From Escherichia coli (GTDB lineage Bacteria; Pseudomonadota; Gammaproteobacteria; Enterobacterales; Enterobacteriaceae), in NCBI RefSeq assembly GCF_030013205.1, contig NZ_CP122648.1: a stretch of DNA of 64,000 nt; one strand, given 5' to 3'. Of the stretch, positions 1-64,000 are shown piece by piece. The translations under genes and the position numbers were made by a program. Each line of letters opens with the position of its first letter. Position 1 is the stretch's first letter. The notes beneath the pieces are model-generated. The model did no database searches and was not told the origin of the DNA. It saw nothing but the letters and a program-made list of their open reading frames with translations.

Positions 1-703
1 GAATAATCGTTCCGCCCAGATGGCGTTCACGCAGCATCAGCCAGATAAGCCCCCAACCGGTGAGCGTTGCCAGTGAGAATAAACTCCCGGCAAACAGCGT
101 ATGGTGCGGATTCTGATTACCGGTTTCCGGCATGGTGGTGATAAATTTTTGCCCGGTATATTGCTGAATGCGCACGCCCATTTTTTCGCTTAGCGGGATA
201 TGTTCGTACCACGCCTGTTGCAGCTGCGCGCACCAGTCGCCGCGATGCAGAATGTCATCCAGAGTGGCGACAGGTTTTATCATCAAAAAATGGCGAATCG
301 GCGTGGTGGTTGGCGTGGTGATTTCTCCCTGATTAACAAACCCCAGCTTGGCGAAAAACTCCACCGCGTCTTCGCGGGCGCTACAGGTCACGCGCTTAAC
401 ACCTTCCTGACGCGCCACAGATTCGAGGGTCATCGCCATCAGCGTTCCTAACCCTTTGTCCTGCACGTCGGGATGAACGGCCATAAAGCGAATGGACGCT
501 TCATTGTCGGCATTAATATACAGTCGGCCTACCGCCACCAGATTACCCTGCTCGTCGACGACCATCTGGTGATGCGCCATCGCATCCCACGCGTCGCGTT
601 CCGAACCTTTCGGTTGATGCAGGGGCTTACGCAACATTTCCCAGCGAAACTGATAGTAACGCTCTAATTCTTCTTCTGTTTGTGGAACCCGAAGGTGATA
701 CAT
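1..703 (-). CDS. yiiD: Acetyltransferase/thioesterase YiiD (FabY), 5' portion only; gene runs off the window start
   Basis: Minus-strand reading frame open from ATG at 701-703 to position 1; translation begins [30 protein letters not shown], recognised as the YiiD N-terminus. Not in the supplied ORF track because no stop lies in the window. Confidence 0.8.
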
Positions 704-747
704 AGCGATACTCTCTCTTGTTTCCCGTGACAACCCTGGAAGCTGGC

Positions 748-1185
748 TCATACCTGCAACCAGAATGTCACGGGGCCATCATTGACCAGCGATACCTGCA
801 TATCCGCAGCGAAGCGTCCTGTTTGCGTGTTCATCTCTTGCTGACGGCAGCGTTCGACGAAATAGTCATATAACGCCTCTGCGCGATCCGGTGATGCACC
901 TTTGGAGAAACTTGGACGCATCCCCCGTTCGGTATCTGCGGCAAGGGTAAACTGGGAAACCACCAGTACACTGCCGCCCGCCTGTTGCACGTTGAGATTC
1001 ATCTTGCCTTCGGCATCGCTAAAGATGCGGTAGCCGAGCACACGCTCGCACAGACGGTTTGCTTTCTGTTCGTCGTCATCCTTTTCGACACCCAATAACA
1101 CCAAAAGTCCCGCGCCAATTTCGCCCGTCACTTCTCCCTCCACGGTGACGCTGGCACGGGTTACGCGTTGAATTAATGCAATCAT
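748..1185 (-). CDS. dtd: D-aminoacyl-tRNA deacylase
   Basis: 145-aa [20 protein letters not shown]...; length and sequence match Dtd as remembered. 4-nt overlap with yihY. Confidence 0.95.
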
Positions 1186-2054
1186 GGTTCGTCGTCTTCT
1201 TCTTGTTCAGCAGCTTGTTTTAATTTGCGGTATTCCCCGAGAGTGACAGTAATTTCCGCGCCAAGCAAGACGATACACCATGTCCAGTAGACCCAAACAA
1301 AGAGAATGGGGATCACCGCCAGCACGCCGTAAATGAGCTGATATGACGGGAACATGGTGATATAAAGCGCGAAACCTTTCTTTCCTGCTTCGAACAGGAG
1401 TGCAGCGACAAACGCGCCGACAATCGCGTCGCGGTTAGGTACGCGGATGGTAGGAACAATGCTGTACAGCAACCAGAAGGAGATCCACGACAACAGCAGC
1501 GGAAAAATACGCAGCACGTTGTCGATGACAGTATTGAGATCGCTCGCCCAGCGCAGGGAGAGCAAATAGGAACTGATCGCCAGACTGGCCCCTGCCAGCA
1601 GCGGCCCCAGCGTTAAAATCATCCAGTACACGGCGAACGAGTAAATTTTTGGTCGAGCTCGTTTACTGCGCCAGATGGTATTCAACGCGCTATCGATGGA
1701 GTACATCAACAATAACGCGGTGACGATCAGCCCGCACGCCCCAACGGCGGTCATCTTGTTGGAATTGGCAACAAATTGTTCGATATACCGCTGAATAACA
1801 TCGCCAGTAGCAGGCAGAAAGTTGGCAAAAATAAAGTGACGCAACTGAATGCTGACGTCGGAAAACATGGGAAAAGCGGCGAAAAGCGCAAAAACAACGG
1901 CAACCAGCGGCACTAATGAGAGCAACGACACATAGGCAAGGTTACCTGCCAAGGTAGTCATGTTGTCCTCATCAATGCGTTGCCAGAGTAGTTTTAGCCA
2001 GGCCCATAGTGGACGGGTACGGTGCCTGGCTTTGTCCTGAATGGTTTTTAGCAT
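1182..2054 (-). CDS. yihY: YihY/BrkB-family inner membrane protein
   Basis: 290-aa hydrophobic ORF; conserved position between yihX and dtd. Confidence 0.9.
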
Positions 2055-2647
2055 AACACCTTCGCGAAATAGCCCGGGATGGTGGTTTTATCTTTCACCA
2101 GAATGCTGGTAATGCCTAGCTGATTAGCTCCTTCTATATTATCGGCGTTATCGTCGAAAAAGACCGTATCGCTGGGTGAAAAACCTTCCGCCTGCAAAAC
2201 ATGCTGGTAAATTCGTGCTTCAGGTTTGCGCATCCCCAGATCTTGCGACAGATAGATATGGTCAGCAGCATCACGAATTTCCGGGTATTCTTCCGGCCAG
2301 AAGGTGGTATGCAGGCGGTTGGTATTGGAAAGCACCACCACGCGATGCCCCTGCTCACGCAGTTTATGCATGATGGCGATCACTTCCGGGCGCAGCGCAA
2401 CAAACACCGCCTGCCAGCCGTGAGAGAACTGCTCATAGCTTAGCGGTAGAGCCATCTCATGACACAGCGCCTCTGCGAACGCTTCGTCGCTAATTTCCCC
2501 ACGCTCATGCTGATGAAACGCCTCGCCCATGTGGAAACTCTTCTTAAGCGTAGCCAGTGGAACACGCGTTAAATCGCTCCAGGCACCCAGCACACGGTTA
2601 AAGTCGATATCGACAATCACATTACCTAAATCAAAGATATAGAGCAT
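2048..2647 (-). CDS. yihX: HAD-family alpha-D-glucose-1-phosphate phosphatase
   Basis: ORF 2048..2668 trimmed to the internal Met giving [15 protein letters not shown] (HAD motif DxD near N-terminus); 199 aa. Confidence 0.9.
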
Positions 2648-2745
2648 TTTTGCCTCCTTTCGCGCCACAAGAAATTAACTGTAGCGGGAAAGGATAGGTT
2701 TGGCTATGTGGTCAGGTATGAAGCAAGGTCAACGGTCACAAAATT

Positions 2746-3531
2746 CTACGCGTCTTCCTGGGGAAGGATGATTTCAATTTGGCTGTCTTGTAAGCGTGAT
2801 TTTAGCGCAGCGGGCGGCAGCTCGTCGGTAAAGAGCGCAGTGACCTGTGCCACGTTACCAATTTCAACCGCCGCCGAAGCATGATACTTAGTGTGATCGG
2901 CGACCAGCAGAATATTTCTCGCGTGCGCCATCATCGTTTTCACCACGTTAGCTTCGTTAACATCAAACTCCATCAACGCGCCATCGCTCTCAATCGCCCC
3001 AACGCTTGTTACCAGATAATCAGCACGAAAATCAGCCACAAAGGACGCCGCTGAAGGGCCAATGATCCCGCTATTATGAGAGCGCAACGTACCGCCGGGC
3101 ACCATCACTTCAAAGCGCGGGTTGTGGTAAAGAATATGCGCCACACGCAGGCTGTTGGTGATTATCCGCAAATGATTGTGGTTAAGTAACGCCCGGGCAA
3201 CATGTTCAACAGTCGTACCGATGGTGATAAATATTGTCGATCCATCAGGAATATAGTCTGCCACCGCTTCGGCAATCGCTTTTTTCTCTTCAGTTTGCGA
3301 AACCTCACGCTGCTCAAACGCCGTATTAACGACGCTGGAGGCCCGACCCGCGCCACCGTGATGGCGCGTGATCAGCCCTTGCTCGCTTAATTTACGAATA
3401 TCCCGGCGGACCGTCTGCGTGGAGACATCCAGCAGATTTGCCAGCTCATCAATATTCATATACCCACGCTCGGCGATCAGCATGAGGAGTTGGTCGTGCC
3501 GCGGGTTACCGGTTAGTTCGGTAAGGCTCAT
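2746..3531 (-). CDS. yihW: DeoR-family transcriptional repressor of sulfoquinovose catabolism (CsqR)
   Basis: ORF 2746..3555 trimmed to MSLTELTGNPRHDQLLMLI...; N-terminal HTH plus DeoR C-terminal sugar-binding domain; 261 aa. Confidence 0.9.
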   Translation of the reverse strand: MSLTELTGNPRHDQLLMLIAERGYMNIDELANLLDVSTQTVRRDIRKLSEQGLITRHHGGAGRASSVVNTAFEQREVSQTEEKKAIAEAVADYIPDGSTIFITIGTTVEHVARALLNHNHLRIITNSLRVAHILYHNPRFEVMVPGGTLRSHNSGIIGPSAASFVADFRADYLVTSVGAIESDGALMEFDVNEANVVKTMMAHARNILLVADHTKYHASAAVEIGNVAQVTALFTDELPPAALKSRLQDSQIEIILPQEDA

Positions 3532-53470: not shown

Positions 53471-54783
<1,313 letters not shown>

Positions 54784-54824
54784 CCTGTACTCCATATGAC
54801 AACCGCCCTGACGGGCGGTTGAAT

Positions 54825-55601
54825 TTATTCTTCAGTTTTTTCGCTTTCTGCTTCAGCGTCGTTTTCCTCTTCCCGATTTCGCCCTTTACCAACGTAAAAG
54901 CGTGAGAAGAAGACACCGATTTCAAACAGGCAATACATCGGGATCGCCAGCAGCGTTTGCGAGAAGACATCCGGCGGCGTCAGCAGCATCCCGACAACAA
55001 ATGCGCCAACCAGCACATACGGACGTTTTTTGCGTAAGTCTTCTGGCGAGGTAATTCCCATCCAGCACAGCAGCACTATTGCCACAGGCACTTCAAAGGA
55101 GACACCAAACGCCATAAACAGCGCCATAACGAAGCTTAAATAGCTCGCGATGTCGGTGGATACCTGTACCCCTTCCGGCGCGGTATTGGCAAGGAAGCCA
55201 AATGCCAGCGGAAAGACCACAAAGTAGGCGAACGCCATGCCGATATAAAACAACAGAGAGCTGGAAACCAGCAGCGGCACCACCAGGCGACGTTCATGCT
55301 TATACAGCGCTGGGGCGATAAACGCCCACACCTGATAGAGAATCACCGGCGCTGACAGAATCAGCGACACCATAAAGGTCAGCTTGATCGGCGTAAAGAA
55401 CGGCGAGGCCACGTCGGTGGCGATCATCGTTGAACCTTGCGGCAACTGCTTGATCAATGGCGCGGATACCAGGTGATAGATGTCATTGGCGAAATAGACC
55501 AGACACAGGAATATCACGATCACCGCGATAATGCAGTTCAGCAGACGCTTACGCAGCTCAATCAGATGCGTGATAAGCGGTTGAGTATCTTCTACAGACA
55601 T
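54825..55601 (-). CDS. tatC: Twin-arginine translocase subunit TatC
   Basis: 258-aa polytopic [24 protein letters not shown].... Confidence 0.95.
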
Positions 55602-55603
55602 GT

Positions 55604-56119
55604 TTACGGTTTATCACTCGACGAAGGGGAAGGTGCAGCGGTTTTCGGTTCAGCGTCCGCAGCAGGTTTTACCACCGGCTCTGGCGTGGTTTCTGGCTTC
55701 TGTTCCGGCGAACTGGCCTGCGTTTGTGCAGCAGCAGGCGTTACGCCTTCATGCGCAGTTTCATTGTCTTTCACCACCGGGTTGTGGATGGTGTGCGCTT
55801 CATCGCTCGCCTTTTCAGGATCGTTTGCAACGTAGGAACGCTTCATCGACTCCGCGGCCTGGCGTAGTTCATCCATCGACGCTTTCAGTTCGGGCGTCAG
55901 GTTAGTGAGGCTCGCCTTTTCAACCTTTTTCAGACTGTCCTGAAACTCCTGGAGTTTTAACTCCTGGGTCAGTTCGTTCTGCACCGTTGTCGCCAGTGAA
56001 CGCAACGCGCGAATCCAGCCCGCGACCGTTTTTACCGCCACAGGCAGTCGTTGCGGCCCCAGAACGACGAGGCCGATGATGAACACCAATAGCAGTTCGC
56101 TAAAACCGATATCAAACAC
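55604..56119 (-). CDS. tatB: Twin-arginine translocase subunit TatB
   Basis: 171-aa [29 protein letters not shown].... Confidence 0.95.
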
Positions 56120-56122
56120 GGA

Positions 56123-56392
56123 TTACACCTGCTCTTTATCGTGGCGCTTCGCGTCTTCTGTTTTAGCCTGTTCCTGATTCGTATCCGCCTGCTTATCGGC
56201 GATAGTTTTCGCAGTAAAATCAGCATCCTGACTGGTTTTATCCTGCTTTGGTTCATCATCGCTCATTGCTTTTTTAAAGCCTTTGATCGACGCACCAAGA
56301 TCGGAACCGATGGAGCCGAGCTTTTTGGTGCCAAAAAGCAGTACAACGATGACGGCAATAATCAATAACTGCCAAATACTGATACCACCCAT
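56123..56392 (-). CDS. tatA: Twin-arginine translocase subunit TatA
   Basis: ORF 56123..56434 trimmed to [25 protein letters not shown]; 89 aa. Confidence 0.93.
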
Positions 56393-56470
56393 ACATGTTC
56401 CTCTGTGGTAGATGATGATTAAACAAGACCGCATTATACGTTACACGGCCCGCCTTGAGCGATGAAAAAA

Positions 56471-58713
<2,243 letters not shown>

Positions 58714-58726
58714 TTCCGGTCTCCTG

Positions 58727-59482
58727 TCAGAACTTATAACCACGATGCAACGCCACAACCCCTGCCGTCAGATTGTAGTAGTCGACACTTTCGAATCCGG
58801 CATCCTGCATCATGGCTTTCAGGGTATCCTGATCGGGATGCATACGGATGGATTCTGCCAGATAACGATAGCTGTCGGCGTCGTTCGCGACCAGTGAGCC
58901 AATACGCGGCAGCACATGGAAGGAGTATGCATCATAGGCTTTGCTCAGCGGCTCGATAATCGGCTTCGAGAACTCAAGCACCAGCAGGCGGCCGCCGGGT
59001 TTCAGCACGCGATACATTGAACGCAGTGCTTTATCTTTGTCGGTGACGTTACGCAGACCAAACGAAATGGTGATGCAATCAAAGGTGTTATCCGGGAACG
59101 GCAGCGCCTCAGCGTTCGCTTGAACATACTCAACGTTGCCAATCACACCGATATTACGCAGCTTCTCGCGTCCCATTTTGAGCATGGATTCATTGATATC
59201 AGCAAGGACCACTTTGCCAGTTTCTCCGACCAGGCGGGAGAATTTCGCTGTCAGGTCGCCGGTGCCACCAGCCAGATCCAGCACGGTCTGCCCGCGGCGT
59301 ACGCCGCTGCAATCAATCGTGAATCGCTTCCACAAACGATGAATACCGAATGACATCAAATCATTCATGACATCGTATTTTGATGCCACGGAATGGAAAA
59401 CGTGAGCGACCATATCCGCTTTTTGTTCCTTCGCGACGGTCTGAAAACCAAAGTGCGTCGTTTCTTGTGACTTATCCACCAT
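58727..59482 (-). CDS. ubiE: Ubiquinone/menaquinone C-methyltransferase
   Basis: 251-aa ORF; SAM-binding motif [10 protein letters not shown]. Confidence 0.95.
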
Positions 59483-59576
59483 CTCAATGCCTGCTCATCA
59501 AAAAATTGTTCCAGAAGTGTAACAGATTGGGCGTCGATGCCCTAGATTTCTACCCGGCTTAACTACCCCCAATGGG

Positions 59577-61004
59577 CTAGCGCGACTGCTGATTATATTC
59601 ATCATCGCGTTGATAAGCTTCATCATTCGGCTGCTCCGGAACCGACCGCAGTCGATACTCTTCATCCTGGCTCACCGCCTGTTCAGCCAAATCCGGATTA
59701 ATCTCGCGTTTAATTTCTACCCCTAAACCGCGAAACGCTTCTGCCTGCGCCAGCACATTTCCGCGACCTGAAGAGAGTTTTTTCATTGCCTGGCGGTAGT
59801 TATCCTGCGCTTTGTCGAGACTTTGACCAATCGCGGACATGTCATCGATGAACAAACGCATCTTGTCGTACAGCTTGCTGGCACGATCGGCGATTTGCTG
59901 GGCGTTGCGGCTTTGATGCTCATAACGCCACAGGTTGGCGATAGTGCGCAGCGCCACCAGCAGCGTAGTCGGGCTAACCAGCATGATATTGTTTTTCAAC
60001 GCTTCGGTGATCAGCTCCGGCTGGCGGTCAAGCGCCAGTAAAAAAGCGGGTTCAACGGGAATAAACATCAGCACGTAATCCAGGGTTCGCAGCCCCGGCA
60101 GCTGTTGATAATCTTTGCGTCCCAGCAAACGGATATGGTTACGCACCGACGCGATATGTTCCTGTAGCGCGCTTTCGCGGGTGTAGTCATCTTCGGCGTT
60201 GAAATAGCGTTCATAGGCGACCAGCGTCATTTTGGCGTCGATCACCACATCTTTTCCCTGCGGCAACCGCACGATGACATCCGGCTGCATCCGCGAGCGG
60301 GCGTCATTTTCGATGCTGACCTGGGTTTCATATTCATACCCTTCACGCAGACCGGAAGCCTCCAGCACCCGCGTCAATACTACCTCGCCCCAGTTGCCCT
60401 GGGTTTTATTGTCGCCTTTCAGCGCGCGCGTCAGGTTGATCGCTTCCTGGGCCATTTGCGCGTTGAGCTGCTGGAGATTGCGAATTTCGTGGGTCAGGGT
60501 ATGGCGTTCTTGTGCTTCTTTACCAAAGCTGTCCTGAACCTGACGGCGGAAACCGTCCAGTTGTTCACGTAGCGGCGACAACAGGCTGTTCAGACTCTGA
60601 CGGTTTTGCTCATCAACCCGGCGATTGCTGTGCTCAAAAATACGGTTGGCGAGGTTTTCAAACTGCTCACTGAGGCGCTGCTCGCTGTTAATCATCTGGC
60701 GAATTTTATCGTCAGCATGTTGCTGTGCGGCTTCCATCCGCGTGGTTACTTCACGCAGATCGGCCTCCAGAGAGGTGTTAATACTTTGCAGGCTGCGCAC
60801 TTCGTTATTGAGTAACTCGCACTCAGCGCGCCAGTGCTCGCTTTGGGTAATTTGTTGTTTTGCCGCGCTTAACTCCGCGACCATCTCTTCACGTTCAGCT
60901 AATTGCTCGGCTTTTTGCTGCGCATGTTGATAACTGGCAAACAGCCAGCCAATTGCCACACCCACCAACGCAATAACTGCGTAAACCATGATTGAGAAAT
61001 CCAC
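59577..61004 (-). CDS. rmuC: DNA recombination protein RmuC
   Basis: 475-aa ORF with N-terminal TM segment and long coiled-coil region. Confidence 0.9.
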   Translation of the reverse strand: MDFSIMVYAVIALVGVAIGWLFASYQHAQQKAEQLAEREEMVAELSAAKQQITQSEHWRAECELLNNEVRSLQSINTSLEADLREVTTRMEAAQQHADDKIRQMINSEQRLSEQFENLANRIFEHSNRRVDEQNRQSLNSLLSPLREQLDGFRRQVQDSFGKEAQERHTLTHEIRNLQQLNAQMAQEAINLTRALKGDNKTQGNWGEVVLTRVLEASGLREGYEYETQVSIENDARSRMQPDVIVRLPQGKDVVIDAKMTLVAYERYFNAEDDYTRESALQEHIASVRNHIRLLGRKDYQQLPGLRTLDYVLMFIPVEPAFLLALDRQPELITEALKNNIMLVSPTTLLVALRTIANLWRYEHQSRNAQQIADRASKLYDKMRLFIDDMSAIGQSLDKAQDNYRQAMKKLSSGRGNVLAQAEAFRGLGVEIKREINPDLAEQAVSQDEEYRLRSVPEQPNDEAYQRDDEYNQQSR

Positions 61005-61106
61005 AACGCCTCCTGACGCAACAACTTACCCGCACAAAATAGAATTGTGCTGTACAAACGTCCAGTTGGAAAGGCATTTCCTGCGAGGCGCTACGCAAAA
61101 ATACAA

Positions 61107-61127
61107 AAGGCCGAACGCGTCGGCCTT
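61107..61127 (-). terminator. Intrinsic terminator of udp
   Basis: Minus-strand hairpin aaggccga-cgcgt-tcggcctt followed by T-rich sequence, 3' of the udp stop. Confidence 0.5.
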
Positions 61128-61144
61128 CAGACAGGAGAAGAGGA

Positions 61145-61906
61145 TTACAGCAGACGACGCGCCGCTTCCACCACGATTTTCACCGCTTGGCTTTCAGTTT
61201 GTTTCATCGTCTCAGCATTCGGGATCTCTTGCTGGGTGCGGTTAACGATAACGCCCGCCACCATACCCGCACGCAGGCCCTGACTTGCACACATGGTCAG
61301 CAGGGTTGCAGATTCCATTTCATAGTTCATTACGCCCATCGCCTGCCACTCTTCCATAGAACCTTTAAAGTGACGAACTACGCGACCAGAGTAAGTATCG
61401 TAACGTTCCTGACCTGGGTAGAAGGTATCAGAAGAAGCCGTCACGCCAACGTGAGTCGTCGCGCCAATGGATTTCGCCGCTTCAACCAGAGCAGTCGTAC
61501 ATTCGAAATCAGCGACAGCCGGGAATTCCAGCGGTGCGAAGTGCAAGCTCGCGCCATCCAGACGAACAGACGCCGTGGTAACCAGAACATCGCCAACATT
61601 AATATGCGGCTGAATAGCGCCCGTTGTACCGATACGCAGGAAGGTGCGAATGCCCAGCTGTGCCAGCTCTTCAACAGCAATAGAGGTAGACGGGCCGCCG
61701 ATACCGGTAGAGCAGACGATAACAGGTTTACCATCCAGCTCTGCACGCCAGGTGGTGAATTCGCGGTGAGATGCCAGCTTAACCGGCTTATCCATCAGCG
61801 CGGCGATCTTTTCCACACGATCCGGGTCGCCAGGGACGATGGCAAGCGTAGCCCCTTGTAAATCGTTTTTAGTGAGGCCGAGATGAAAAACATCAGACTT
61901 GGACAT
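61145..61906 (-). CDS. udp: Uridine phosphorylase
   Basis: ORF 61145..61912 trimmed to [31 protein letters not shown]; 253 aa. Confidence 0.95.
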
Positions 61907-61978
61907 ATACAACTCCTCTGTGAATCGGTTTAGTCAGAAGAAGCAAAAAGACACTTTACCGAAGGGTTTAACATTTTT

Positions 61979-62047
61979 TCGTGATGCTCATCACCATGAC
62001 GCAAATGCGTTGCATAAATTTACCCATCAAAAGTGATGCAAATCACA
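61979..62047 (-). promoter_or_regulatory. udp promoter region with tandem CRP sites (CytR-type architecture)
   Basis: Two CRP-like dyads, tcGTGATgctcaTCACc (61979-61996) and aaGTGATgcaaaTCACAt (62031-62047), centres about 52 bp apart, matching the known -41.5/-93.5 arrangement of the udp promoter. Confidence 0.55.
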
Positions 62048-62167
62048 TAAATCACTCTTCATTCTGCAGGACTGCATAAAAGATGAGCCGATTCAGGCAA
62101 TGTGATTTGTTGCATGCTGACTATAGTTAACATTGCGCAACATTTTTATAAGGGTACGGAGAATACC

Positions 62168-62980
62168 ATGGCAACAACACAACAATCTGGATTTGCACCT
62201 GTTGCATCGCCTCTCGCTTCGACCATCGTTCAGACCCCGGACGACGCGATTGCGGCGGGCTTCACCTCTATCCCCTCACAAGGGGATAACATGCCTGCTT
62301 ACCATGCCAGACCAAAGCAGAGCGATGGCCCACTGCCAGTGGTCATTGTAGTGCAGGAAATTTTTGGCGTGCATGAACATATCCGCGACATTTGTCGCCG
62401 TCTGGCGCTGGAGGGGTATCTGGCTATCGCACCTGAACTTTACTTCCGCGAAGGCGATCCGAATGATTTTGCCGATATCCCCACGTTGCTTAGCGGTCTG
62501 GTAGCAAAAGTGCCTGACTCGCAGGTGCTGGCCGATCTCGATCATGTCGCCAGTTGGGCTTCCCGCAACGGCGGCGATGTTCATCGTTTAATGATCACCG
62601 GATTCTGCTGGGGTGGACGTATCACCTGGCTGTATGCTGCGCATAACCCGCAACTGAAAGCGGCGGTGGCATGGTACGGCAAACTGACGGGCGATAAGTC
62701 GCTGAATTCACCGAAACAACCTGTTGATATCGCAACCGATCTTAACGCGCCGGTTCTCGGCTTATATGGCGGTCAGGATAACAGCATTCCGCAGGAGAGC
62801 GTTGAAACCATGCGCCAGGCGCTGCGGGCTGCTAATGCGAAAGCAGAGATTATCGTCTACCCGGATGCCGGGCATGCATTCAACGCCGATTATCGCCCGA
62901 GCTATCATGCCGAATCTGCGAAAGATGGCTGGCAGCGAATGCTGGAGTGGTTTAAGCAGTATGGAGGGAAGCGGAGTTAG
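62168..62980 (+). CDS. ysgA: Dienelactone hydrolase-family protein (carboxymethylenebutenolidase homologue)
   Basis: ORF 62102..62980 trimmed to MATTQQSGFAPVASPLAS (RBS ggag upstream); alpha/beta hydrolase with nucleophile elbow GFCWGG; 271 aa. Confidence 0.9.
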   Translation: MATTQQSGFAPVASPLASTIVQTPDDAIAAGFTSIPSQGDNMPAYHARPKQSDGPLPVVIVVQEIFGVHEHIRDICRRLALEGYLAIAPELYFREGDPNDFADIPTLLSGLVAKVPDSQVLADLDHVASWASRNGGDVHRLMITGFCWGGRITWLYAAHNPQLKAAVAWYGKLTGDKSLNSPKQPVDIATDLNAPVLGLYGGQDNSIPQESVETMRQALRAANAKAEIIVYPDAGHAFNADYRPSYHAESAKDGWQRMLEWFKQYGGKRS

Positions 62981-63371
62981 TTTCCTCTTAGTCTATATTT
63001 GAGATGGTGAGTGAACGAGTGCGTTTTGCTGCCATCTCTGTCCCCCAAAAAATAATCAGTATGAATTGATTGGAGAGCACGACTCCGCTATTTGACCTTA
63101 AGAAAGTCGGCAAGTAATAGTCATAAGTGAGTCTCTTCACTGGCAGACACCTTAGAGATTTACCATCAACTCCCATTCTCAAACAAACATTAATTATTAT
63201 CAACACATTCACATTAATTATAAATTATCTCAGACCTTCCTGATAAAAAGATATTAAAGTGAAACATTTTGTTTTTCACATTTTAGTTCATCCCTTTTAG
63301 GCGTAAATAAAGGTAAAAAATAACAATACTATTTTTCTTTCACAAAAGAATTAACAAAAGGTTTTTCAAGG

Positions 63372-64000
63372 ATGAGTGATATTATTTACCTGAACATAAC
63401 CGGAGAACAACAAGGATGTATTTCCTCTCGTTGTGGAACGAGCGCATCAATAGGTAATCGCTGGCAGATTGGCCATGAAGATGAAATCTTCGCGTTCTCG
63501 CTCTCTAATAGTATTACGAATACAGGCAAAGGGTCACAATTGCATGGCCTTAGTTTCTGTAAATTGATTGACAAAAGCTCCCCGTTACTTATTAACGCTA
63601 TTAACAATAACGAGCAGTTGTTCATGGAGTTTGACTTCTATCGGATCAATAGATTTGGTCGATGGGAGAAATATTACAACATTCAACTTCGCGGCGCGCT
63701 CTTATCAGCAATCAATCACCTGTTTACTGAGAACAATCTGGATACAGAAACCATCACTGTCAGTTATGAATATATACTCTCCAGGCATCTGATTGCTAAT
63801 ACTGAATTTAGTTATTTGGCATTTCCCGATAACTACAACCGTCTGTTTATACCACGGCCAAAAACTAAAGATGATAATGGCCTCAAAACACTCAATAGTA
63901 AAGCGGTTGGCAGACTGCTTGCTGCTGGCGGCATATACAATGGGAATATCGAAGGATTCAGGGAAACAGCAAACAAGTTGGGAGGAGATGCACCTGCTGG
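63372..64000 (+). CDS. Hcp-like (type VI secretion tube protein family) ORF with C-terminal extension; 3' end beyond the window
   Basis: ATG at 63372, open to the window end (at least 209 codons, checked codon by codon). N-terminus MSDIIYLNITGEQQGCISSRCGTSASIGNRWQIGHEDE... and internal LSFCKLIDKSSPLLINAINNNEQLFMEFDFYRINRFGRWEKYY match Hcp hallmarks (GHEDE, KxIDKSSPxL, FxFYRIN). An Hcp domain is normally complete by about 150-160 aa; this ORF continues (…IPRPKTKDDNGLKTLNSKAVGRLLAAGGIYNGNIEGFRETANKLGGDAPA…). Low-GC relative to flanking core genes. Not in the ORF track because no stop lies in the window. Confidence 0.7.
   Translation, partial: MSDIIYLNITGEQQGCISSRCGTSASIGNRWQIGHEDEIFAFSLSNSITNTGKGSQLHGLSFCKLIDKSSPLLINAINNNEQLFMEFDFYRINRFGRWEKYYNIQLRGALLSAINHLFTENNLDTETITVSYEYILSRHLIANTEFSYLAFPDNYNRLFIPRPKTKDDNGLKTLNSKAVGRLLAAGGIYNGNIEGFRETANKLGGDAPA

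Follow-up and report, generated by a model that had tools for sequence, protein, structure and literature searches.

Three previously unconnected literatures, on the Hcp-ET effectors of Escherichia coli, the Pantoea PIX effector Pse3, and the S-type pyocins and colicin-like bacteriocins, are linked by the gene described here, whose 5' part lies at positions 63372..64000 (+ strand) of a 64,000-nucleotide stretch of the E. coli contig NZ_CP122648.1 (assembly GCF_030013205.1), hereafter the window. The Hcp-ET proteins are specialized type VI secretion system (T6SS) effectors in which the tube protein Hcp carries a C-terminal extension, defined as longer than 60 residues (PMC8262886) or as at least 120 residues (PMC11148199). 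Reviews describe five of them, the Hcp-ET1 to ET5 of Ma et al. (PMC6730261, PMC6099711). In Hcp-ET1 a predicted HNH DNase is joined to a YhhZ-like Hcp (Ma et al. 2017, Virulence 8:1189, via the same two reviews), its delivery is T6SS2-dependent, and E. coli strains may have more than one T6SS (PMC6730261). The class is established yet thinly characterized, and with the gene described here the published E. coli clans, five in number, would be joined by a sixth toxin type.

The Pantoea agglomerans pv. betae effector Pse3 depends on the T6SS for its secretion (10.1101/2023.07.16.549128; Cell Rep 2024). It kills prey that lack pse3 and psi3 and is neutralized by Psi3, and its C-terminal domain, of unknown activity, shares homology with the C-terminal end of a PAAR protein from Ralstonia (10.1101/2023.07.16.549128). 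Our own search of the AlphaFold Database (AFDB) also returned such a protein. The Pyocin_S domain is confined to toxins that need to enter the cytoplasm, so far nucleases (PMC9040868).

The open reading frame (ORF) in the window starts with an ATG at 63372 and runs without a stop as far as the window edge, so that 209 codons can be translated. An initial annotation of the window had noted conserved Hcp blocks near its N-terminus, and all three are present: GHEDE at residues 34-38, KLIDKSSPLL at 64-73 and FDFYRIN at 87-93. Profile searches place the N-terminal region in the Hcp/TssD family, as had been expected there. Residues 1-147 (63372..63812, +) match the Hcp profile TIGR03344 at E 7e-37 and 126.9 bits, over the whole domain of about 150 residues and above the curated cut-off of 58.9 bits; the same N-terminus matches Pfam T6SS_HCP (PF05638) at E 1e-14 and solved Hcp structures (PDB chains) at E 8.5e-15. 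Approximately 62 residues of C-terminal extension fall within the window.

Many complete E. coli genomes match the window's last 1 kb at 100% identity. In a search with its last 10 kb (54001-64000) the best matches listed, all at 100%, were swine isolates, with porcine enterotoxigenic E. coli (ETEC), O139:H1 and K_EC180 among the 100% matches. In strain 7/2 the gene is 1,134 bp long, encodes 377 residues and is annotated tssD (L001 12373-13506), but this strain is only about 98.4% identical to the window over 13 kb, and the ORF was therefore completed from K_EC180. There it is intact, encodes 377 residues (L093 15372-16505; adding 48000 gives window coordinates) and continues for 168 codons past the window edge, followed by the same two small proteins as in strain 7/2, both genes being intact. 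The initial annotation had held that the frame runs past the canonical end of Hcp, and had taken a stop within 10-20 codons of position 64000 as the mark of a plain Hcp; in K_EC180 the extension beyond residue 147 amounts to 230 residues, which exceeds both published length limits. The remaining 168 codons, the two immunity genes and metE would lie beyond the window.

Based on this, the window very likely holds codons 1-209 of the 377 of a specialized Hcp effector gene of the Hcp-ET class (63372..64000, +), which would encode an Hcp domain (residues 1-147), an adaptor (172-236) and a Pse3-type toxin domain (about 237-377). The same degree of likelihood attaches to the joint reading in which this effector is accompanied by two cognate immunity genes, lies on a horizontally acquired island and is probably inactive in the swine lineage. 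Hundreds of genomes already have the gene annotated as tssD. The interest of the locus lies less in its architecture than in an uncharacterized toxin fold and a natural series of inactivated alleles; the copy in the window is itself ordinary and probably defunct.

The toxin type can be assigned through the Pantoea work. P. agglomerans proteins of 348 residues, tabled by Carobbi et al. as PIX proteins beside Pse3, are 79% identical to the E. coli toxin, a figure that refers to these proteins and not to Pse3 itself. Each has a 90-residue ORF at -4 in that table, which also lists Pse3 (WP_064704874.1) and Psi3 (10.1101/2023.07.16.549128). The 90-residue partner that we extracted, WP_062759404.1, appears in the PIX table as well and belongs to the same family as the E. 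coli immunity ORFs. Homology over the C-terminal ~136 residues together with a Psi3-like gene downstream, both traced through the table listing of the 348-residue proteins, identifies the E. coli domain as Pse3-type. Given the Pse3/Psi3 experiments in Pantoea, the toxin type is a validated antibacterial T6SS toxin, of which the E. coli gene would be the Hcp-fused version. The adaptor segment and the winged-helix immunity family are also common to the two systems, and both effectors are orphans. They differ in that Pse3 sits on a VgrG-binding PIX domain and is a cargo effector, whereas the E. coli toxin is fused to Hcp and is a specialized effector, and in that E. coli has two tandem immunity paralogs.

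Comparison with Hcp-ET1 shows the reverse pattern, in which the carrier is conserved and the toxin is not. We located Hcp-ET1 in O104:H4 C227-11 as AAF13_RS24950, a yhhZ-like gene adjoining yrhA (L006 34886-36555), with weak HNH and Col-Pyo_DNase signals. The carrier formed by its Hcp domain and adaptor is 73% identical to residues 1-228 of the ORF, and Hcp-ET1 is likewise an orphan in a small island between core genes with an immunity gene after it. The alignment ceases after residue 228 and the toxin domains are unrelated; the locus is yhhY-yrhA rather than ysgA-metE, and the immunity protein is YrhA rather than an 85-residue winged helix. Conservation of the carrier with exchange of the C-terminal toxin argues for polymorphic-toxin modularity, and the extension domain is also found on PAAR, Rhs/YD, PIX and Pyocin_S/Cloacin carriers. 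No match to the C-terminal families of the five described Hcp-ET clans was found by Pfam (E <= 10), NCBIfam or alignment with Hcp-ET1. On sequence grounds we therefore class the ORF as a specialized Hcp effector of the Hcp-ET class that lies outside these five clans. T6EC4 (Geller et al. 2024), a Citrobacter koseri Hcp with an unannotated C-terminus, was considered as an identity for the ORF and rejected, its toxin being Tox-REase-5-like. As a side observation, the yhhY-ggt interval holds the Hcp-ET1/yrhA island, so that in E. coli one and the same carrier is docked, with different toxins, at two or more chromosomal sites.

The toxin domain comprises about 140 residues and, in the kind of structure prediction that the initial annotation had recommended for the extension, AlphaFold gave a confident all-helical model with a predicted local distance difference test (pLDDT) score of 89. 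Homologues found with residues 237-377 as the query extend from Enterobacterales to Pseudomonas, and a profile search of 1.84 billion representative proteins collected 788 clusters. The domain almost always occupies the extreme C-terminus, in carriers of 130 to more than 5,000 residues: Hcp proteins, PAAR proteins adjoining VgrG and a DcrB adaptor, YD/Rhs-repeat proteins, LysM proteins and S-type pyocin or colicin-like proteins. Cyanobacteria, Planctomycetota, Bacteroidota and Acidobacteriota were added when reference genomes were scanned, bringing the spread to at least five phyla. Across 331 unique sequences the near-invariant residues are R256, H288, R304, D319, H325, E326, E329, R332 and H356, a pattern that points to an enzyme active site.

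The bacteriocin branch deserves separate mention. Many AFDB homologues of the toxin are annotated as S-type pyocins, and in proteins of 500-1,035 residues from Pseudomonas, Serratia, Salmonella, Klebsiella and Pantoea the ~140-residue domain directly follows Pyocin_S, as in P0048 (PF06958) and in a 1,035-residue Cloacin + Pyocin_S protein of Salmonella. A small ORF of immunity size comes after each. These proteins differ from the E. coli effector in being diffusible bacteriocins and not T6SS substrates, and their toxin branch, at approximately 44-48% identity, is accompanied by a second, unrelated immunity family. Neither a recognizable nuclease fold or motif nor a demonstrated activity places the domain among the nuclease bacteriocins. 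The Salmonella protein is encoded in a bacteriocin array of Salmonella enterica MYZS01000015.1 (L010 1-9108), which adjoins a Phage_GPA-family replication gene and an antiterminator Q gene; the array holds the 1,035-residue toxin-ended protein, an 85-residue ORF, a 293-residue Pyocin_S + Colicin_D protein and two Colicin_immun genes.

Libraries of known domains and folds gave little purchase on the toxin. Beyond the Hcp domain, Pfam returned no match even at E <= 10; NCBIfam, PADLOC and PHROGs returned no toxin match on the C-terminus, PHROGs matching the linker alone; and the toxin domain model had no match among solved folds. Bacteriocin nuclease folds (HNH, colicin D, E3, E5) were matched neither by sequence nor by structure, and informal inspection of the consensus by eye found no fit to HEPN, HD, Fic or metallopeptidase motifs. 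The earlier remark that the extension carries no recognizable motif is thus borne out, in that no library model recognizes it. The accompanying suggestion that its activity could be new calls for a qualification: the toxin type is already known from Pantoea Pse3.

Our best guess at the activity, offered tentatively and at somewhat less than even confidence, is a nuclease that cleaves phosphodiester bonds, because of the bacteriocin context, the Arg/His/Glu core and the co-residence with a Colicin_D module in Salmonella. Against it stands the lack of any nuclease fold. A bolder proposal, which we hold to be possible but rather doubtful, is that the toxin is a catalytic fold without solved relative, whose target lies outside the known T6SS and bacteriocin activities (DNase, RNase, NADase, lipase, cell-wall hydrolase), which is delivered by four or more routes (Hcp, PIX, PAAR/Rhs and S-type bacteriocins), forms a toxin-antitoxin-like pair in cyanobacteria and is neutralized by a repurposed PadR-like winged helix. 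If this were true, the natural E326Q allele discussed below would mark the active site. With a confident model, a sharply defined set of His/Glu/Arg residues and no structural relative, the domain is a tractable subject for finding a new toxin mechanism.

Between the Hcp and toxin domains lies a conserved and portable adaptor, or linker, of which residues 172-209 are encoded at 63885..64000 (+) and the whole module spans residues 172-236; its start was placed by alignment, PHROGs matches and Hcp-ET1. Columns K172 to G234 are near-invariant in an alignment of eight proteins, among which three unrelated N-termini and two unrelated toxins are represented, the segment being common to Hcp, PIX and DUF8093 carriers. 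Residues 171-236 match phrog_31266 and phrog_14497, both families without an assigned function, at E ~1e-15. The sole transmembrane-like stretch of the protein, a Gly/Ala-rich segment at residues 218-236, falls just past the window. In Pse3 and Pse4, deletion of the region equivalent to the adaptor left secretion unaffected (10.1101/2023.07.16.549128). We infer a role after delivery, for example in crossing the inner membrane of the target cell. When the linker alone was used in a word-indexed search, most of the matches were short fragments, which gave little information on other linker-borne toxins. In Cronobacter, Citrobacter, Atlantibacter and Enterobacter this adaptor and toxin are also borne by the third N-terminal carrier, PF26362 (DUF8093 in AFDB); our Pfam scan of the DUF8093 carrier P0250 gave no match, presumably owing to a different library version, and a literature search on DUF8093 found nothing.

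In the mechanism we propose, the Hcp fusion would be loaded with or into the Hcp tube of a distant T6SS linked to aspV, by analogy with Hcp-ET1, and fired into neighboring bacteria. The toxin would then hydrolyze its target in the cytoplasm through the putative His/Glu/Arg active site, while sister cells would be shielded by the two small, cytoplasmic winged-helix immunity proteins. In the swine ETEC/O139:H1 lineage the weapon is probably inactive, and the island may persist mainly as an immunity locus.

The initial annotation had proposed a search for T6SS core genes elsewhere in the genome, and such genes were found in both reference strains, in different states. Strain 7/2 has a complete T6SS cluster at the tRNA-Asp gene aspV, about 4.1 Mb from the effector gene in record coordinates, and the two Hcp proteins encoded in this cluster share 38% and 30% identity with the Hcp domain of the ORF. 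Compared with strain 7/2, the aspV cluster of K_EC180 (NZ_CP062203.1 3,954,000-3,972,000) is eroded: tagH has an internal stop, a 7.0-kb deletion has removed tssM, tssA and vasI entirely, together with the greater part of VasL and the 3' end of tssH, and in place of the hcp/vgrG end stand a truncated Rhs gene and an ISAs1 pseudogene.

The toxin itself also carries substitutions in K_EC180, namely M301I, E326Q and T376K relative to the strain 7/2 allele. Position 326 is Glu in 330 of the 331 family members and position 301 is Met in 326 of them. The I301/Q326 allele was found in 18 of 727 genomes, all from swine; in five of these 18 it is annotated 'hypothetical protein' instead of tssD, and one (P15-25) has an IS3 element at the locus. 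Substitution of near-invariant toxin residues, together with the broken aspV cluster, leads us to regard the weapon as probably inactive in the window's lineage, with the inactivity of the swine allele itself put forward as a hypothesis.

The strongest alternative is that the effector is fully functional in this lineage, with Gln326 and Ile301 tolerated and delivery taken over by another T6SS. It would account for the intact 377-residue ORF and immunity genes of K_EC180, and this genome was inspected at one T6SS locus in a species that may carry more than one (PMC6730261). The rarity of both substitutions across the family speaks against it, as do the uneven annotation of the allele and the IS3 element noted above; further, the Hcp domain is closest to that of the T6SS2-dependent Hcp-ET1, and the aspV cluster is without tssM and tssA. 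We therefore consider full function unlikely and retain the reading of an inactive Hcp-fused Pse3-type effector with two immunity genes. Three points nevertheless weigh on the other side of that reading. The window ends at residue 209, so that everything downstream is deduced from genomes identical over the overlapping 10 kb; the inspection of K_EC180 covered the aspV cluster only, and another T6SS may exist elsewhere; and the toxin domain is acidic (median isoelectric point 5.2), unlike the basic classical colicin nucleases, which weakens the nuclease guess.

Signs of decay are not confined to swine strains. In CFT073 (L011 16001-17708) the Hcp-toxin gene has a stop at W98, with both immunity genes intact. 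Of 846 carriers, 257 match the 98-nt sequence of this W98-stop allele exactly, Nissle 1917 and the type strain of E. coli among them. In Shigella, copies of the gene are joined to IS1, and in S. sonnei an ORF links the toxin domain to IS1 orfB. Since the toxin has been lost repeatedly while immunity was retained, it is probable from these sequences that the weapon is decaying in the swine lineage while immunity is kept. The B2 nonsense allele (Nissle 1917, CFT073), the active-site-like E326Q allele of swine strains with a broken T6SS and the immunity-only remnants amount to natural experiments within E. coli, and this inactivation series illustrates how a weapon may decay while immunity is retained. 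In CFSAN061768 only the last 500 bp of the island matched, holding the second immunity gene (annotated as MarR family), and this locus is an immunity-only remnant without the toxin gene. Insertion sequences (IS) are found at the locus more widely: in 14 genomes an IS1 copy is located inside the matched 1 kb or upstream of it, and IS3 is present in O139:H1 P15-25 and 95-3192.

The initial annotation had anticipated an immunity gene downstream of the effector, and two ORFs of the immunity type, with a predicted function, do lie directly 3' of the toxin gene. The first, of 85 residues, overlaps the toxin-gene stop by 4 nt and is followed by an 81-residue paralog with 60% identity to it; their position marks them as candidate immunity genes, neutralization being predicted. 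ORFs of 79-80 residues directly after the PAAR-linked and Pseudomonas indica toxins align with the E. coli ORFs over their full length (E ~1e-10). Among 79 genome loci drawn from across the phyla, a profile of the family matches, in 46 of 76 cases, the ORF that abuts the toxin stop; of the 2,247 ORFs it matches only two others, both slightly offset. Most of the other loci are of the pyocin type, and 28 of 31 have the second small family; no relation between the two immunity families was detectable.

By profile comparison with the PDB the immunity family matches PadR-like structures (E 6.5e-6), and weak PadR, HTH_45 and MarR Pfam matches occur among its members. The AlphaFold model (pLDDT 92) has the topology H-H-H-beta-beta-H, consistent with a winged helix-turn-helix fold. 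No N-terminal hydrophobic segment is present in the immunity proteins, suggesting that they are cytoplasmic and, in turn, that the toxin acts in the cytoplasm.

These features raise the question of whether the small ORFs are ordinary MarR/PadR regulators, or part of an intracellular toxin-antitoxin addiction module, rather than T6SS immunity genes. NCBI and UniProt label them 'MarR family transcriptional regulator', in keeping with the profile matches to PadR/MarR structures. Microcoleus (L040 4992-5884; loci L035-L042) offers a parallel for an addiction module: the toxin domain there is a stand-alone ORF of about 136 residues, its partner is a 160-residue protein in which the winged-helix immunity domain is joined to a HicB-like antitoxin domain (phrog_497, E 2e-11), and the pair looks like a toxin-antitoxin system. 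In contrast to PadR/MarR regulators, the E. coli ORFs consist of a single domain of 80-90 residues that is always coupled to a toxin gene. The family comes directly after the toxin, often overlapping its stop, on carriers built for export (Hcp, PAAR/VgrG, Rhs, PIX), and the Pantoea ortholog, Psi3, acts as an immunity protein that protected prey from T6SS-delivered Pse3. We thus judge a regulator or addiction module improbable and keep to the reading of the two ORFs as immunity genes.

Still less probable is that the ORF is an allele of the Hcp-ET1 HNH DNase. NCBI names fragments of the protein 'HNH endonuclease' or 'colicin', and the carrier is shared with Hcp-ET1 as described above; these labels probably derive from the shared linker. 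The alignment does not extend into the toxin and the gene occupies a different locus (yhhY-yrhA for Hcp-ET1), while the C-terminus has no Pfam match and its all-helical model lacks the beta-beta-alpha-Me motif, making this identity very hard to sustain. An ordinary structural Hcp whose tail is merely rather long and has no function would agree with the simple annotation 'tube protein TssD' but is ruled out by the length and conservation of the 230-residue extension, which has a confident fold, recurs across phyla on toxin carriers and is coupled to an immunity family.

The gene lies on an island of about 2.2 kb with a GC content of 33-44%, compared with 52-58% in the flanks, as the initial annotation had seen in describing AT-rich DNA beside core genes, and the neighbors are indeed ysgA and metE. 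Upstream of the ORF, the E. coli core genes ubiB, ubiJ, ubiE, rmuC, udp and ysgA can be read from the ORF listing; ysgA (dienelactone hydrolase family; 62168..62980, +; L093 14168-14980 in the K_EC180 annotation) forms the left edge of the island. The left arm (62981..63371, no strand assigned) is AT-rich, its GC content being 33-34% where the flanks have 52-58%; it is missing in K-12 and C227-11 and is enriched in sigma-70-like sites, counted as consensus matches only; it is the probable promoter region of the Hcp-toxin operon. In strain 7/2 the order is the 377-residue gene, the 85-residue ORF, the 81-residue ORF and convergent metE. Only 39 bp separate the stops of ysgA and metE in K-12, where the island is absent, and the ysgA-metE site of O104:H4 C227-11 is also empty. 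The island, an insertion relative to these two genomes and low in GC, is probably horizontally acquired. No T6SS gene was found in the collinear annotated counterpart of the window, and the gene is accordingly an orphan, as first proposed.

Among 5,426 complete genomes of E. coli, 848 have the island, in every case on the chromosome, with CFT073, 536, Nissle 1917 and avian pathogenic E. coli strains among its carriers. A literature search found no paper on the Hcp fusion, on the ysgA-metE island as a T6SS locus or on the exact accessions; one paper merely lists a larger metE-ysgA genomic region in B2 strains. In B2 strains ysgA and the toxin gene are separated by metabolic genes (fdrA, arcC, cytosine permease, tkt, ptsG, hxlB) that span about 14 kb. 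A variant island occurs in O145:H28 RM12761 (L012 3001-4384; also L018), where a 382-residue Hcp fusion has a toxin approximately 77% identical to that described here and a single 81-residue immunity gene overlaps its stop by 11 nt. The variant explains a class of matches at ~90% identity, and NCBI names fragments of its Hcp fusion 'colicin'. Further upstream, positions 2955-49969 of the window, which include an rrn operon and the yih sulfoquinovose genes, are collinear with strain 7/2 (L092) at approximately 98-99% identity, the alignment being split into separate blocks, and the strain 7/2 counterpart of this region has copies of IS1397 and IS200C.

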